A stretch of 64,000 nucleotides of DNA from positions 1 to 64,000 of the forward strand of contig CBDBDR010000014.1 in the NCBI GenBank assembly GCA_965203965.1, read 5' to 3'. Within the stretch, counting starts at the first letter, position 1. Each line of letters starts with the position of its first letter. The notes beneath the pieces are model-generated. The model had not been told where the DNA came from. It saw only the letters and a list, made by a program, of their open reading frames with translations, and made no database searches. Below, piece after piece: positions 1 through 63,174 of the stretch. Source of the stretch: Thermodesulfobacteriota bacterium (GTDB lineage Bacteria > Desulfobacterota_D > UBA1144 > Nemesobacterales > JAJCZQ01). The position numbers were made by a program, and so were the translations under genes.

Positions 1-79
1 AGATTGATTGCTACGTCCATAATAATTATAGGTAGTATCGTGGTAGCTTTTTGCCGTAGCACAGAAACAATAATCATTG

Positions 80-115
80 ATAAGACGTTTCGATCCGAGG
101 ATCTTCATCAGTTAT
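80..115 (-). ncRNA. Minimal type I hammerhead ribozyme motif (inverted copy)
   Basis: Exact reverse complement of 244-279. Confidence 0.85.
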
Positions 116-243
116 AAAAACAAAATAAGTCACTAAACTTAAATAACAATCTTCCAGGTGGTGTGGCATGAGGTGTGCATGTGACGAGTATGTTGAGATG
201 TATGTGTGCACAGGAGAAATGTTTAGTGTCTTATTTTGTTTTT

Positions 244-279
244 ATAACTGATGAAGATCCTCGGATCGAAACGTCTTAT
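244..279 (+). ncRNA. Minimal type I hammerhead ribozyme motif
   Basis: ATAA-CTGATGA-A-GATC(CTCG)GATC-GAAA-C-GTC-TTAT: catalytic core CUGAUGA/GAAA/UH, stem I ATAA:TTAT, stem II hairpin, palindromic ACGT minimal stem III. Confidence 0.85.
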
Positions 280-382
280 CAATGATTATTGTTTCTGTGC
301 TACGGCAAAAAGCTACCACGATACTACCTATAATTATTAATGTTTTATTTGTTATAAATTGTATTTTGTGTTGTTTTACCAG

Positions 383-975
383 ATCAAGCAGCTACTCTGA
401 ATTTGTCAACAGTCAAGGACAACTTGTCTGTCGGTAAACCAGCAAGATCTGATGCTTCATCGACCTCAAGCAGCACAGACTGGTCCTGGTAAGCAACGTC
501 GACTCATTTGATTTAATTTTCTCTCAGCGAGTATCCTCCGATTAAGACTGATCATGAACGTGCCAGGTACAAGCGTCTTTTCAACCGCGAGTACAGTGAG
601 TATCTGGAGGTGAAGAGAGCGACCGATGAGGTGCAGGAGGACGTGGCAAGACTCACAGCACAGCTCAACTCACTCAGAAAGGACACGGACGAGTTCAAGG
701 TTGTTAAACACTCAAGTGTGCTCATTGATGAAAGGAATTTTTTTGTCTTGCAGAAAGTGAAGAGAAAAATTAGAGATAAATATCTTGGAATTCAAGAGGT
801 AGGTAAATTTTTGCTAGCAGCCGTTAATCTGTTGTTTTTTTTTTTCTTGCAGGATAAAGATTATCAGAAAAGAAAGGAACGATTTCTTCTACTGCACTAT
901 AAACTAGCTCATGTAAAGAAGATGGTTATGGAGTACGACTCTCTACACGGACTCCAAGACCAAACACTCTCTTGA
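383..975 (+). CDS. ELL: 3' exons of RNA polymerase II elongation factor ELL-like protein (Occludin/ELL C-terminal domain); 5' part lies outside the window
   Basis: Exons ~383-488, 528-699, 754-798, 853-975 splice to EYPPIKTDHERARYKRLFNREYSEYLEV...DYQKRKERFLLLHYKLAHVKKMVMEYD. Confidence 0.8.
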
Positions 976-1161
976 TTATTATTATACGACAATTTTATGC
1001 ATCACTCACGAATCATCTGTTTTGTACATTCACTGCACTCTCTAAAACCACGAAGTTTGCCGCAGGCAGGCCGACATCACGTGAACAAGCTGGCATCTGC
1101 GCTGCTTGCACAGTTCAGATGCCTTGGGCGCGATTAAACATATTTGTAGTACTGCGTACTA

Positions 1162-1320
1162 GTTAAAGTACCGCTCCGAGTGCTCTACGCAATATAATAG
1201 CACGAGGGGCGTGGCGAGAGGCAAATAGAGCACGAGCCGAAGGCGAGTGCTCTATTTGTCTCGAGACACGACCCGAGTGCTATTATATTGCGTAGAGCAC
1301 GAGAAGAGCGGTGCTTTAAC
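1162..1320 (+). repeat. 159-nt imperfect palindrome/hairpin centred on GCC-GAA-GGC
   Basis: Arms pair around position 1240; most mismatches are G.A or G.T on the + strand, plus one AA bulge. Confidence 0.9.
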
Positions 1321-1927
1321 AGGTTTAGAGTGTGACCTTGTACAATTGCCATAAGGGATACTGCTAGCAGGCCGAAGACAGTCCAGTATAAACGCTACCA
1401 TTATGGGAATTTACGGAATTATACGGAAATCCGTACACGAGCACATGGTGGAAGGTAGCTGTGGACGAGAGCGCTGTGATTTCGACTTGGGAATATGATA
1501 GGAGCAGAGAATTCAACACCAGAAAAGAAGACGTGTCTTATTTATCTAACTACCAGTGGGCTAAAGCTATGAAGGAATCATGAATCAGTGAGGAACGACT
1601 TCACCGAACCTCGTGGATGAAAGTATCCATCGAACGTACATCAGCAGTGACGCCGAGCTACTTGCTACGCTGCCATGTAGCTACTTTCCGGTTTCATCCT
1701 GTCTTTGAGAAGCTGTAGCGCCCTGGATAAACCTGACGTCACCTACCATGCTAACGGCGTGGCCCTCCTATCTAGCTTTCTTCTGGCCTTTCGATCGCTG
1801 TTAAAGACACTGAATAGTCTCTGTTCGACATTGTTTTAGTATTTTATCAAAATGAAAGTTGTTTGTGTTTCATCGCATGTATTTTGTAATTAAATTCACT
1901 GCATATCGGCATGTTAACACCTGGTAG

Positions 1928-2032
1928 ATAGAGCACTGCGGTGGAAAATAGAGCACTGTAGAACAATGGGTTTGGGAAAATAGAGCACTGTTTGAACAAT
2001 GGGCAGTGCGTACTATGGAATATAGAGCACTG
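1928..2032 (+). repeat. Four direct repeats of ATAGAGCACTG (1928, 1948, 1980, 2022)
   Basis: Directly visible; the same core motif occurs in the 1162-1320 hairpin. Confidence 0.9.
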
Positions 2033-2195
2033 TCGGCGCCTTTGATCTTGTATGGTATCATACTCTAAGAGGTGATAGTGTACATTGGTAAAAATAACTG
2101 AGGCGATCTTCACAGGTTCTTATAGACGCAGTAGCGTCATTCATTCAGCAATACCTGAAGAAGATTCGAACAGCAGTTTGGAACGAAAAATCGCT

Positions 2196-4875
2196 ATGCA
2201 TGTAATTTCGCAAACAACGCTCGCTCTAGCATTTGTCTTGCTATGCAGAATCAATGGTACGTGAAAGTCTAAATCAACAGGGTCAGTGTGTCAATTGTTC
2301 ATTCATGTAGCGGTTATCTTTCCTGAGTCGCAGTCAGCGGCACCTGGTGACGTTGTGCTGTTTGAATGCATCTCGCAGGATTTCACTCTAGTCTGGCATA
2401 TTAACGGCAGCGAACTTAGCTGGAGCAACCTTCCTGTAGGTCACTGGGTCAATTCATCAGGCCTGGTAGTGCAGGCTAGACAAGAACTGAATGGAAGTAG
2501 ATATCAATGTGTTCTTGCAACTATTGGTATGACTGATGGAGGGTCTTTGTTTGTCACCAGAGAGGGGGTAACAAGGAGTCATGCTTCACTGAATGTCACC
2601 TCATCAGGTTAGCGTTATTTTAGAACGCCATGCTGTCTTTAGAAGCATGATATTGTTTTTCTAGTGCAGTCAAACATTATCCACACAGACAGATGTTGTG
2701 TAGGCTTATTCCCTGTTACCATTCGGAGAATGCTTGTAGATTGAACCTATTACAAATAATATACACAACACTTTAGTTAACCGCTCACATCTATCACGTT
2801 GGTATACACAGGAGATACAGCAGTGAACACTAACTACAGAAAGGGGATAGTGGTGACGTCAGTGGTTTACGATCAGGCAACTGACAGTTTAATGATCGAC
2901 TGGGAACCAACTGGATCATCCTACCAGCTGTACATCAGTAGCTGCACGCATTCTCTCTGGTTGCAGTCGCAGAGAGCGACCTGTGCACCTGTTCTCGTTG
3001 AAGGTATAATGAGGGCATTGGGCAACAACAGTGTGACTATTGATGTGAGAACTTGTGATCTCGAGGGTGAATGTGAGTTCAACCCTCCTCAAGGTGCAAG
3101 GGTCGATCAACAGACTTTGGTCAAATTGGAAATGAACAGCTCAGGTGCTGGCTTATCCGTACAGTGTGGTAAATTTCATGCACCTTTTTTCTTGTAGATT
3201 TAATTCCTCGAGAGCTTCCGGCCCTAACATTAAATCAGTCTAAGATACGGATTTTCCGGTCCAAGCTCTGGTCTCAGTGCACACGAGCTGGTCTGAGGAT
3301 TGCTGTATTTGATGCCACAACCAGAGTCAACTACACTCTCACAGAACTCATTTCTGATTTCAATACCATCTTTTTTCTCAGTGTGAAGTTTGTAGAGCCT
3401 GGTATTGAGATAAACACTGTATCATTGGGGACTACCCAAAGCTTAATCCGAGCACTGTTTGGGGAGTCAGTGAGAGAGATATACATACAAGAATACTGCA
3501 CTGATACTAGCTGTGATGGCAGGCTAACCACTACATTTGGAGACAAGATAAAACTGATTATAGATCCGGCCCAACCAAGCCAAGGTACAACTTAGTGCAA
3601 TGTTTGATTACTTCTCTACAAATGCATTTCTCCAGATGTCTTACAGACTTGCACATACACGGCTGAAGATATTTTGCGTAAGTGGAATATGCTGAGTAAC
3701 TATACATTAATGTTATGGTTTTTATTGTGAATAGGATCTCCAACACCAACCGTCGTAGAAATGATTCCAACCTCTACATCAGTTGTTGATAGACCAATGC
3801 CGACGTCAACTACGTCAACACCTATTCCTACTGTACGACCGACTAGTCAGCCTAGTATCCCAATTACGTTTTCACTAGGAGGTACATACATGTATCTGTC
3901 AGAACTATTTTCCTGTTGAAAAATATGTGTTTTTTGCCTAGCTATCATTGGTCTAGCCCTTGCAATAGTGATGTTGATAGCGCTGGTCTTAGGAGTTCCA
4001 ATTATTATTGTAGGAATCTTCAGTTGGAACAAACGAGTAAGTTACAAGTAGGTTAAATGCTGCATCACTCTTTTTTTTTCTTTTTTACGCAATAGAGAAA
4101 ATCTGGTAATGCACTTGCTGCTGGAAACAAACTGTATGATCAGCCTTTTCGGTCATCATTTCGACGCAGTCTGCCGGGTACTCCTAAGCTTTCATCACCA
4201 TCAAGACACAGTATCTGTGAGTCGCCAATCTCACCAACTTATTCTACCTACGTTGGTCGACCTCTTGCTAATGGGGACGCCAAGAATCCGCAATACCAGC
4301 TGGTAGCATTTGTAGAAGGACCACAGGCAGCAATGCACTCACCTCAGGGATCAATCTCATTTGGAGGACACTCGAGAAACCCAAGTAGTGTTGCACCTAT
4401 GGACAAGCATAGACAGTACGGTGGTGATTCACCAACTGGAACCAATACTGAGCCACAAACACCAGACTATATCACACAAATGAAGATCCCAGACTTGAAT
4501 CTTACAGAGCCCGTTCGTCGCTATGTACCAGTAGACCTTCTACCAGCTGCTTTTTCAGACTCCTTAGCAAGCACACCAATACCCAGGCATGATCAAGATG
4601 GCAACCAGCTCCCTCCTCGTCCTGGTGCTCCATCCCCTATGAGCATTCCTCCAATGTTCCACAATGGATTGCCAAAGGCTTATGACAGAGACAGGCCAAA
4701 TTCTGCTCAGCAAATGGCTCAAGCTCCTCCATATTTTAATCCACCAACATATCCAAATCAGCAATGGTCAGCAACCCTACCACGTCTTGGACGACCGCCT
4801 CAAAGTGATCTAGCAACAATCAATAAGACCGCAACTACACGTTCTGACGAGGATAGAATTTGGAATGTAGTTTAA
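2196..4875 (+). CDS. Single-pass type I membrane protein: signal peptide, Ig-like domain, FN3-like domain, Thr/Pro stalk, TM helix, long Pro-rich cytoplasmic tail
   Basis: MHVISQTTLALAFVLLC signal; phase-1 exons; Ig motif VVLFEC...LVWHING...LNGSRYQC; TM IIGLALAIVMLIALVLGVPIIIVGIF; terminal exon ~4096-4875. Confidence 0.75.
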
Positions 4876-5578
4876 TTCTCACCACTGAACAAATCAATGA
4901 TTTATATAACTCTCACAACAAATCAGCACATTGCTAACTTTTGATACCACTTAATAAATTACTTGCTGTGTGTTGTGTAGTGTACAAGCTATTTTGGTTC
5001 AATCAAAATTCTTTCCCTGAGTCAGTTGTGACAAAATTTGCTATTGTATCTACTGTGAAGAATATCTGAGATGCCTGCAGGCCTACTTGTACTAATAGAT
5101 ACTCGTGCGGCACCATTATAATCAATAGTTATAGTCATCACATAATTTGTGTCTCGTAATTACCTCACTGTGCATACAGTAGCCCATTTTTGTCTATAAT
5201 ATAATTATAAATCAGATATTTAATACCTAAGATGGGATCTACTCAAGTATTGCACTTATAATATACCTCAATGTTACTAATAATTATAAATATAATATTA
5301 TACCTCAATGTTAAATGCACGAATAGTTGGTGTCAGCTTCAGACTTATTTTGTAGATGTTAAGTAAATGTGCATTCGTCAGCATAACTGTAATTGCATTC
5401 CCATGCTCTCTTAGTTTGCATAAATTTTTGACTCCTCCAAATGAATGTTATTCCTGCGACTCTGCAGCTTGCATATGCACACAGCCCTAAGAACGGTCAT
5501 GAATACGATAATCAACTGGTTTAAATATTCATAGCTGAAATGTAATCCGGTAATCGGCGTCCATTTAAACCAAACCGC

Positions 5579-6529
5579 ATGCGTTTGAGTCGTTCTGCTT
5601 GGTGGGCTGTCATGGCGTCTTGTTTGTTGATCTCTGTCCTCTCGTTACTAGCGTTGTTGCACGTCTCCAGTGCAGCTAACGGCAAGGGGCCGTTGGTGAC
5701 GGACGTGGTAAGACTCCAACAGCATTGCACCGTTTACGCATCACGGCACGTGGTACCCTTTGTCTGCATTGTCTCAGGTCTACTTCGATATTTCCATCGG
5801 AGATAACCCTGTGGGAAGGATCGAGATCGGTCTGTTTGGTAAAACTGTTCCGAAAACCGTTAAGAACTTTGTCGCTCTAGCTACCGGAGAGGTAATTTAC
5901 CATGATTTGCAATGTTTAGACGAAAGTGTTACTGTTCACTCTCCACAGAAAGGGTTTGGCTACAAAAACAGCAAGTTCCATCGTGTTATCAAGCAGTTCA
6001 TGATTCAAGGTAAGAAGAGACAAAGAACCTTATCGCACTACTACACCTGTCTTTCTCATAGGTGGTGATTTCACCAATGGAGATGGAACTGGAGGTATGA
6101 CCAACCATTAATCAACCCTATGCATGGTTCTATTGTCCTCTCCTCAGGCAAGAGCATCTATGGAGACAAGTTCAAGGATGAGAACTTCAAGCTACAGCAT
6201 CATGGTCCAGGGTGGTTGAGCATGGCTAACGCTGGCAAAGACACCAACGGTTCACAGTTTTTCATCACCACTGTTAAAACATCGTGGCTGGATGGACGCC
6301 ATGTAGTGTTCGGAAGAGTTATAAAAGGAATGGTAAGGGGGTGCATATTTTGATTCTGGAATCTTCTATTTGTGTTTCTGGGATATATTTATCTTGTTGT
6401 TTTTAGGACGTCGTTAGTGAGATTGAGAAGACGCCCACTGGTAGCAGTGATCGACCCAAGGAAGATGTCACCATTACTGAGTGCGGTCGACTGGACACAG
6501 AGCCATTCAACTCTGACAAGGACTGGTAA
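5579..6529 (+). CDS. PPIB: Peptidyl-prolyl cis-trans isomerase B (cyclophilin B)
   Basis: Signal peptide; [16 protein letters not shown]...[14 protein letters not shown]...[16 protein letters not shown]...[20 protein letters not shown]...[10 protein letters not shown]; short introns. Confidence 0.95.
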
Positions 6530-61635: not shown

Positions 61636-63174
61636 TTAGCTTTCGTACCAATTCATAGATCGTTCCAATGCTTTCTGCCAAAGAGTGTATGACTGTTTAA
61701 GTTCTTCACACATTGTTTCACTGCGGGGTTTAAAAATGCGGTCCAACTGCCAGAAGTTTTTCACCTCTTCTCGTGAGCTCCAGAAACCTGAACCAATACC
61801 AGCTACAAACACTGCCCCAAACACAGTCAGGTTGAGTGTCTTTGGACGATAGAGAGGCAGCTCCAGCAGGTCACTGGTCAGTTGCATCACTAGTGAATTA
61901 TTGCACACACCACCATCAACGCGGATTTTTTCAATAGGATAACTGACTTCTTCAACGGCTACATCATAGAGCTGCTTGCAGGTGAAGGCAAACGACTCCA
62001 ACATTGCTCGAGTGATGTGTTCTTTGCGAGTGTCGTAAGTCACTCCCACAATCGATGCAGCACAGTTTGGATCATTGTAAGGCGCTTGCATACCACTGAA
62101 ACACGGCACAAAACAAACACCACCAGAGCTCTCAACAGATGTCGCCAGTGCCATGGTCTCGGAAGGATCAGAGTAGAGACCGAATTTCTGTCCCCATTCT
62201 ACTACGCTGCCTATACTGGCAAAAAAACCTTCCGCAAAGAACACCAACTCGTCTCTTATCTTCCAGCCTATAGTTGGGTAGAAGCCAGTTACAGATGCAT
62301 GTGGTTTATTACCGGTATTGATACTCAGAAACATGCCCGTCCCAAAGGTACACTTGGCGTCGCCTGGCTCCCAACACATCTGGGCAAAGGCAGCACTCGT
62401 CTGGTCAGAGATCACACCTGTTATTGGTATGCCTTGTCCAAAGATGTGCGCCACACTGATGCCAAAGTCACCACCAGAGTCTCTGATCTCTGGAAGGATC
62501 GCACTAGGGATTTCCAGCAAAGACAAGAGCAAATTTGACCAGTCCATTGTGTATGGATCGTACATGACAGTGGTCGAAACGTTCGAGTAGTCAGTAGCAT
62601 GCACCTTTCCCTCTGTGAGCTTCCATACTATCCACGTGTCTACGGTTCCGAAACACACCTCTCCTTTCTCAGCTATTTCTCTCACGCCCTCCAAGTTGTT
62701 CAGCAACCAGTGAAGCCTGATTGCGGACATGCCAGTTATGAATGAAATGACACTAGCCGCAAGGAATCTCTTGCTGCGTGTGAAGAAATGCAGGAAAGAT
62801 GATGCCGCTTGAATTGTCTTCTTCTTCATTGACTCGTTCCAGCGCTCGCAATCCTTTGCAGCACGTCGGTCCTGCCAAGTGATAAAGTTGCACAGTGGTT
62901 TGCCTGTCTCACGTTTCCAAAGCAAAATCGTGTTCCGTTGACAAGTGATTCCCAAGCACGCTGCAGCGGGTTCCAACGACGCTTGACGCAGAGTAACCTT
63001 AACTACTTCCTTGAAGGACCGCCATAATTCCTCGGGGTCTATCTCACAAGCACCAGGTGTTGGGTGGATCACCTTGACTGGGAGCTGGTGTTTGGCGATG
63101 ACTTGGCCGTCTCTCTTAACAGCAACGCATTGTATGTTGCTCGTGCCTATATCCACGCCAAGAGTGTACGCCAT
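61636..63174 (-). CDS. GK5: Glycerol kinase 5 (FGGY family), single exon
   Basis: LGVDIGTS; GITCQR; NFITWQDRR; GK5-type FLHFFTRSKRFLAAS insert; FGTVDTW; ATDYSN; VDGGV. Confidence 0.92.
   Translation of the reverse strand: MAYTLGVDIGTSNIQCVAVKRDGQVIAKHQLPVKVIHPTPGACEIDPEELWRSFKEVVKVTLRQASLEPAAACLGITCQRNTILLWKRETGKPLCNFITWQDRRAAKDCERWNESMKKKTIQAASSFLHFFTRSKRFLAASVISFITGMSAIRLHWLLNNLEGVREIAEKGEVCFGTVDTWIVWKLTEGKVHATDYSNVSTTVMYDPYTMDWSNLLLSLLEIPSAILPEIRDSGGDFGISVAHIFGQGIPITGVISDQTSAAFAQMCWEPGDAKCTFGTGMFLSINTGNKPHASVTGFYPTIGWKIRDELVFFAEGFFASIGSVVEWGQKFGLYSDPSETMALATSVESSGGVCFVPCFSGMQAPYNDPNCAASIVGVTYDTRKEHITRAMLESFAFTCKQLYDVAVEEVSYPIEKIRVDGGVCNNSLVMQLTSDLLELPLYRPKTLNLTVFGAVFVAGIGSGFWSSREEVKNFWQLDRIFKPRSETMCEELKQSYTLWQKALERSMNWYES

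Follow-up and report, generated by a model that had tools for sequence, protein, structure and literature searches.

A strand-specific DNA hairpin with tandem G.A pairs at the end of a high-copy, non-autonomous mobile element in animal DNA from a bacterial genome bin

The movement of animal rolling-circle transposons as single-stranded DNA is an inferred process, and the end signals of these elements are usually short palindromes, which are silent on the strand that is acted upon and on the structure that is recognised. Canonical Helitrons begin with 5'-TC and end with CTRR-3', insert between A and T, and carry a hairpin at the 3' end. Elements of the IS200/IS605 family (IS608) have strand-specific imperfect hairpins at both cleavage sites, generate no target-site duplication, form circle junctions, and have their ends recognised structurally on one strand only. 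At the level of DNA structure, tandem G.A pairs in a YGAR context are known to adopt the sheared form and to be stable in DNA.

Among eukaryotic elements, the HINE and Helentron groups have a layout that matches the locus described here. These elements are described as having subterminal inverted repeats, a stem-loop beside one end and central repeats, as lacking a target duplication and as occurring in tandem copies (PMC4067079, PMC7492417). HINEs are reported to have insertion at TT, terminal Ts, inverted repeats of approximately 11-15 bp, and a palindrome of 5-10 bp located 8-35 bp from the 3' terminus (PMC4067079, PMC7492417). The d(GNA) triloops are described as very stable in DNA and as strongly dependent on their closing pair (PMC3201870). 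Both d(C-GNA-G) and tandem sheared G.A pairs in 5'-YGAR-3' are familiar as biophysical model systems or as satellite repeats (PMC3201870, PMC11014236).

The stretch of DNA analysed here (64,000 nt, "the window") corresponds to contig C14, one of the 17 contigs in a 1.99-Mb assembly. Only one of these, the 1.5-Mb contig C17, looks bacterial, and it represents the bacterial chromosome; contigs C1 to C16 comprise approximately 480 kb of eukaryotic, animal-like DNA, in an assembly for which a contamination figure of 0.07 is quoted. The eukaryotic character of the window is seen in its short open reading frames and visible introns, and Pfam domains detected in it are Rav1p_C, RGM_C, SNF2, FGGY and Occludin_ELL; a reverse-transcriptase element is also present among the host contigs. 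The last exons of the host gene with the Occludin_ELL domain lie at 529-975 on the + strand (PF07303, E 1.6e-10 and 6.2e-07), and in this region a contig from public run X5, which is considered an RNA run only by guess, is spliced from 485 to 527. None of the listed runs that contain this stretch is recorded as RNA. The 913-bp mobile element described below was searched for in 60 relatives of the bacterial genome and had no match outside G000. On the basis of the introns, the animal-like domains, and the absence of the element from the 60 bacterial relatives and from C17, we conclude that the window belongs to the genome of an animal host and was binned together with that of a symbiont or associated bacterium. 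The features of the window should therefore not be attributed to the bacterium, though the genome is filed as bacterial. The earlier note on this DNA, made from the sequence alone, had guessed at a marine invertebrate, which fits a contig that is eukaryotic rather than bacterial. Amid this intron-rich animal DNA lies an uninterrupted open reading frame of 512 amino acids (61636-63174, - strand) with FGGY_N and FGGY_C sugar-kinase domains, which is either an intronless host gene or possibly an acquired one.

The hairpin occupies positions 1162-1320 of the + strand (159 nt). It had been described as containing eight CGAG tetramers, each facing another on the folded strand, and this description proved exact. 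CGAG starts at 1177, 1203, 1215, 1233, 1244, 1262, 1274 and 1300, and CTCG occurs once, at 1260. With 142 CGAG and 133 CTCG in the whole window, about 0.34 CGAG would be expected per 159 nt, against the 8 observed. When folded as DNA, the + strand forms a single hairpin of -67.4 kcal/mol, which none of 200 shuffled sequences equalled (mean -20.5 kcal/mol, z-score -17.2). The four CGAG/CGAG sites appear in this fold as 2x2 internal loops, and the remaining deviations from perfect pairing are two single G.A mismatches, one G.T and an AA bulge, all of the kinds previously claimed and with the bulge where it had been placed. The apex, likewise correctly located, is a GAA triloop (1238-1242) with C1238-G1242 as closing pair (GCC-GAA-GGC); other copies have GCA or GTA at this site. 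The - strand folds less well, at -59.6 kcal/mol, which is 7.8 kcal/mol weaker than the + strand and in the direction that had been expected of the complementary strand.

Logan contigs of four public runs were aligned on positions 1-3000 of the window. One contig from run X2 (389 nt, depth 102.6) joins position 1155 directly to position 2069. It skips 913 nt with an ambiguity of 1 nt, has no differences from the window over 849-1155, and has the depth of single-copy sequence. At most 1 nt is shared between the two sides of this empty site, which means that the insertion lacks a target-site duplication. Contigs from run X1 span both filled junctions. The empty site identifies the hairpin as the terminal part of a mobile insertion. 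The unit is accordingly larger than 1162-1320 and extends over 1156-2068. Contigs of run X5 align to 381-687, 851-984 and 1434-2069, and none aligns to 1001-1400.

The depth of the insertion differs greatly from that of its flanks. In X1, the single-copy flanks have a depth of about 2, compared with 58 at positions 1434-2068; in X2, the corresponding depths are about 100-140 and 3565. The bin 1201-1300, within the hairpin, reaches 3024 in X1, 10518 in X2 and 11539 in X11, a run with another organism label. Overall, the k-mer depth of the insertion is approximately 30-fold to more than 1000-fold that of the flanks, figures which we read only as "repeated many-fold", since summed contig depth is not equivalent to copy number.

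The entire 913-bp insertion (1156-2068, + strand) is a non-autonomous mobile element; it begins with GTACTAGTTAAA, ends with CTCTAA, and contains no long open reading frame according to the list of open reading frames. All of its parts are given here on the + strand. A 6-nt leader, GTACTA (1156-1161), separates the 5' end of the element from the foot of the hairpin, which is followed by a 4-nt spacer, AGGT (1321-1324, as read from the sequence). The spacer leads to the left subterminal inverted repeat (1325-1346), the core of which, TTAGAGTGTGA, is complementary to the 3' terminus of the element: it matches the reverse complement of 2058-2068 at 10 of 11 positions, past which the match continues more weakly. 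A 17-nt repeat, GGAAAATAGAGCACTGT (repeat family D1), is present in four direct copies at 1923-2033. The right inverted repeat and 3' terminus (2046-2068) ends with CATACTCTAA and includes the palindrome GTATG-GTAT-CATAC, located 5 nt from the 3' end. The stop codon of the Occludin_ELL gene lies approximately 180 nt upstream of the insertion.

The host contigs, approximately 480 kb in total, contain 14 hairpins with this CGAG/CGAG, C-GNA-G design. A BLAST search of window positions 1-6000 against the host contigs returned self matches only, so the family is invisible to sequence similarity alone, and gapless palindrome scans recovered only two copies, because bulges break the palindromes. Ten hairpins were identified on contigs C1, C4, C6, C11, C14 and C15 by a seed-cluster inverted-repeat scan combined with folding, and self-comparison of the hairpin regions revealed a tandem twin at C1:2015-2157, bringing the total to 11. 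Three further copies (C15:55897, C11:7522 and the partial copy C1:31914) were obtained with a covariance model, R1, built from the six alignable copies and used to search the whole assembly at E up to 1. The 19 matches of this model were confined to host-like contigs, and the bacterial contig C17 had none. For the window copy, the match covered 1160-1320 and was limited to the + strand (E 1.8e-16, 71.8 bits); the copy at C1:13552-13687 was likewise matched on its CGAG strand alone (76.8 bits). Both were matched over the full model, and neither belongs to the set from which the model was trained. For the training copies, the opposite strand scored 60-70 bits lower. Three copies on C6 were missed by the model at E up to 1 and are counted as members of the family on architecture only. 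Between the depth of approximately 30-fold to more than 1000-fold and these 14 hairpins, the sequence is clearly not single-copy.

The RNAalifold consensus of the six alignable copies has 59 pairs, 23 of which show double compensatory changes in at least one sequence, and the apex-proximal CGAG/CGAG site is unchanged in all six. Pairing in the hairpin is thus upheld by compensatory change. Every full-length copy starts with TAGTTA or a one-letter variant of it (TGGTTA, AGGTTA), followed by NNNTTTAKA-like sequence. Sequence patterns were also used as queries in other datasets: ACTAGTTAAAN{6,9}CCGAG, which is too unspecific, occurred at 39 loci in viral contigs and at least 115 in genome contigs, and CGAGACACGNCCCGAGTGC at 27 loci in metagenome contigs. 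A hairpin scan of these viral, genome and metagenome loci found no family member among the matches listed, and we regard them as chance matches.

Several repeats were observed in the vicinity of family members or in the course of the scans. The three hairpin copies on C6 lie within 3 kb (C6:9263-12158) and form a subfamily with an extra outer module; one is truncated at its 5' end and has lost the apex, another is cut at its 3' end, and the third is inverted and has a mutated apex. On C4, about twelve tandem units of 82 bp, 95-97% alike (C4:16396-17422), are found approximately 200 nt before the hairpin copy C4:16043-16189, and this array may be the satellite-like central region of an adjacent member of the hairpin element family. 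A minisatellite of about 1 kb with units of approximately 20 nt (CTCTAACTCTACATG-like) at C1:24040-25070 shares GTGCTCTA with the hairpin but has no relation to the element. At C2:21697-23289, long arrays of C-rich periodic repeats appeared as pseudo-palindromes in the scans.

Both ends of the element can be placed in three subfamilies, and in all of them the inverted repeat found 4 nt after the hairpin mirrors the very 3' terminus: 10 of 11 positions match in the window copy, 22 of 23 in a second copy at C1:13548-14102, and 12-13 nt (TTAGACCATAGC) in group A. The second copy is 555 nt long, is also opened by the 12-mer GTACTAGTTAAA, and interrupts a reverse-transcriptase reading frame, which continues into an RVT_1 domain. 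Removal of the 555 nt brings CAT and GAA together and re-establishes the frame, and no base is duplicated; as 555 is a multiple of three, this restoration is consistent with the boundary and does not constitute proof of it. The counterpart of the spacer is GTGT in this copy and TGAT in the group-A copies, which have ATAATA as leader. At C1:2008-2769, two group-A units of 371 nt each, 95.7% alike, follow one another head to tail; they meet at GGTCTAA|ATAATGGTTAGAC, a junction that folds as an extended hairpin of 186 nt. The 3' end is CTAA in two of the three subfamilies (window and group A), and the C1 copy ends with ACAA. At the two resolved insertion sites, CTGC|GAGG in the window and CCAT|GAAT on C1, the bases next to the element are C|G and T|G. 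In the orientation of the G.A strand, the element consists of a 6-nt leader, a hairpin of 130-190 nt, a 4-nt spacer, the subterminal repeat and an internal region, which contains short tandem repeats in some copies. The hairpin stems are broken every 8-26 nt by CGAG facing CGAG and are capped by C-GNA-G.

The mismatches in these hairpins have a consistent polarity. In representatives of six subfamilies, the mismatches of 1x1 and 2x2 internal loops are purine-purine in 32 cases, pyrimidine-pyrimidine in one and A.C in three, and GA lies opposite GA in 10 of the 11 2x2 loops; this is not the pattern of mismatches placed at random. Since the copies were oriented partly by their CGAG content, the 1x1 loops provide a fairer test of polarity, and these alone comprise 11 purine-purine, one pyrimidine-pyrimidine and two A.C mismatches. 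The 1x1 mismatches, the GNA apex and the polarity of the element are all independent of the CGAG-based orientation, and every copy yields the same strand when its orientation is taken from where the hairpin lies with respect to the inverted repeat. Five of the six representatives have a C-GNA-G apex (GAA, GCA or GTA). At one site, CGAC/GGAG, the closing pair is swapped with retention of the G.A pairs, an argument for structure as opposed to the literal tetramer. The two strands do not fold equally well either: in nine of ten full-length copies the CGAG strand has the more stable fold, by a margin of 2.7-11.7 kcal/mol, the exception being the decayed copy C15:55897, with a slightly better fold on the other strand. 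In all relatives identified, the G-opposite-A pairs stay on the same strand, and this suggests that the G.A strand folds while it is single-stranded during movement of the element. The earlier note proposed that selection had favoured folding of one strand, for instance in the end hairpin of a mobile element. This proposal has in silico support from copy number, polarity, covariation and the empty site, with the single-stranded state itself standing as the step that we infer.

Our main interpretation, to which we assign a probability of roughly 0.6, is that a high-copy, recently active, non-autonomous family of elements without target-site duplication has the hairpin as its terminal recognition structure, and that these elements use a single-stranded or circular HUH route. 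The enzyme class and the nick site in this interpretation are, like the single-stranded state, deduced from the architecture of the ends. The element would move via a single-stranded or circular intermediate, presumably with the help of a rolling-circle transposase of the HUH type, of the Helitron/Helentron kind. The hairpin would snap shut on the G.A strand, after which the 3' end of the element could pair with the repeat that follows the hairpin. The two ends of the element, ..AA on the 3' side and the leader GTACTA or ATAATA on the 5' side, would thereby meet in an internal loop between two helices, facing the 4-nt spacer (AGGT, TGAT or GTGT), and this loop is a plausible site of cutting and joining. 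The head-to-tail junction on C1 may be the same meeting of ends in duplex form.

We class the element as one that works like HINE/Helentron elements and is probably related to them, though not as a proven member. As in HINE and DINE-1, there is no target-site duplication, according to both the empty site and the restored frame of the C1 reading frame; the terminus is an inverted repeat of the subterminal sequence just inside the stem-loop of the opposite end; and the elements are non-coding, high in copy number, found head to tail and equipped with short internal tandem repeats. The stem-loop, 6 nt from a terminus, is positioned as in HINE, but its size and design differ, being 130-190 nt long with spaced tandem G.A pairs and a GNA triloop, in contrast to 5-10 bp. 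Instead of TT, the only two resolved sites show C|G and T|G, and terminal Ts are found at one end only, as on the HINE strand just the 5' end starts with TT. Furthermore, the top strand by the HINE convention would carry C.T rather than G.A mismatches, so that either the functional strand is not the one marked by this convention, or the design acts on the opposite strand. The motifs TTAGAC, GTCTAA, TAGTTA and TAACTA are all absent from the supplements of PMC4067079. In a search for Rep/helicase partners, PF14214 had no match and PF05970 had weak matches on the bacterial contig C17 only, with none on the host contigs, of which approximately 480 kb are too little for either result to be informative.

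Other known systems resemble the element in fewer respects. Canonical Helitrons share with it the absence of target-site duplication, the asymmetric ends, the 3' CTAA of the window and group-A copies and the small 3' palindrome of the window copy, but the 5' end here reads GTAC or ATAA instead of TC, neither pair of flanking bases (C|G, T|G) is A|T, ACAA forms the 3' end of the C1 copy, and the dominant hairpin is at the opposite end; with the 5'-TC and A|T target lacking and the CTAA end present in only two of three subfamilies, we rejected this assignment. IS200/IS605 elements (IS608) are similar in having a strand-specific imperfect end hairpin, no target duplication and a junction configuration, but they are prokaryotic and their hairpins are approximately 20 nt long, whereas the present family occurs in animal DNA and not on the bacterial contig C17. 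The C-GAA-G, C-GCA-G or C-GTA-G apex and the CGAG/CGAG sites are exactly the motifs of the extra-stable DNA mini-hairpins; a repeated transposon-end design is not described for these motifs in the literature searched, and a limited search found no description of a transposon end composed of tandem G.A pairs and a GNA triloop. Replitrons, which are described from plants, algae and protists, were set aside.

The main rival of this interpretation is a transposon that acts on double-stranded DNA, by means of a DDE transposase or a Crypton-like tyrosine recombinase. The hairpin would then be an inverted array of binding sites, CGAG a directional duplex motif, and the G.A pairs would never form. Elements mobilised by tyrosine recombinases generate no target duplication and form circles, in agreement with such a mechanism. 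In the window copy, the core of the 17-nt repeat, ATAGAGCAC, also builds the hairpin stem, with 9-mers common to 1179-1249 in both orientations, so that a stem motif recurs in four direct copies close to the opposite end; in the C1 copy, a different stem motif of 16-17 nt is likewise common to its internal repeats, as would be the case for subterminal transposase-binding sites. The interior of the group-A units, however, has no stem motif in common with the hairpin, and a pure sequence motif leaves unexplained the excess of single purine-purine mismatches (11 versus 1), the GNA triloop closed by C-G in five of six representatives, and the swapped closing pair of CGAC/GGAG with its G.A pairs kept. 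We consider this rival rather unlikely.

It is also conceivable, at considerably lower probability, that the hairpin acts as RNA, either as a small-RNA precursor or as a structured part of a retroposed unit, with tandem G.A pairs stabilising an RNA stem. The RNA fold of the hairpin is strong and has the same strand bias as the DNA fold (-114.8 kcal/mol for the + strand and -101.2 kcal/mol for the - strand; 0 of 200 shuffled sequences as good), so energies alone cannot separate DNA from RNA, and the window copy is located just 3' of the stop codon of a gene. Rfam covariance models gave no match on 1162-1320 at E up to 1, however, and the exact empty site with neither tail nor duplication, the terminal inverted repeat and the head-to-tail junction all point to transposition at the DNA level. 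Copies are moreover found in both orientations and inside another transposon, which also speaks against an RNA function.

The hairpin might also be read as a palindromic miniature element of the piggyBac type, in which GTTAAA...TTTAAC would represent TTAA target duplications, since a TTAA motif marks each hairpin foot of the window copy (1163 and 1316) and of the C1:13552 copy. This is very improbable in general and is refuted for the window copy by the empty-site contig, which places the boundaries at 1156 and 2068 rather than at TTAA and the length of the insertion at 913 bp rather than 159; the feet of group-A hairpins, TTAGAC...GTCTAA, contain no TTAA at all. The last alternative, a decayed perfect palindrome or a chance feature, accounts for a hairpin that both strands can form and for nothing further, and it is refuted, in agreement with the earlier note, by the excess of CGAG, the GA/GA tandem mismatches, and the recurrence of the design in sequence-divergent subfamilies with compensatory changes in their stems.

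Returning to a terminal recognition structure for single-strand transposition, a more specific version of it, which we offer tentatively and with some doubt, is that these elements represent an undescribed branch of eukaryotic single-strand (HUH) transposons, in which a long DNA hairpin with sheared G.A pairs and a GNA triloop is recognised and joining takes place in the internal loop formed upon pairing of the 3' end. The end signal is large, and its architecture is conserved across divergent subfamilies. It combines three motifs that are stable on one strand only, namely tandem G.A pairs in a YGAR context, single purine-purine mismatches and the GNA triloop, and could thus serve as a readout of the functional strand. 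If this were true, the strand that serves as transposition intermediate could be told from the sequence by its mismatch chemistry alone, and by the HINE convention it would here be the "bottom" strand; the arrangement of the ends provides a concrete and testable model of how they may be cut and joined.

A second foldback, unrelated to the hairpin, is located at 20-339 of the window, with arms of 119 nt that are 99% complementary and a centre of 82 nt. It has high depth in the runs, and other copies have other centres (joints from 74 to 249, 285 or 286, and from 106 to 247). A match to Rfam family MIR869 is below threshold (87 bits versus a gathering score of 330), and the foldback is probably a miniature inverted-repeat element.
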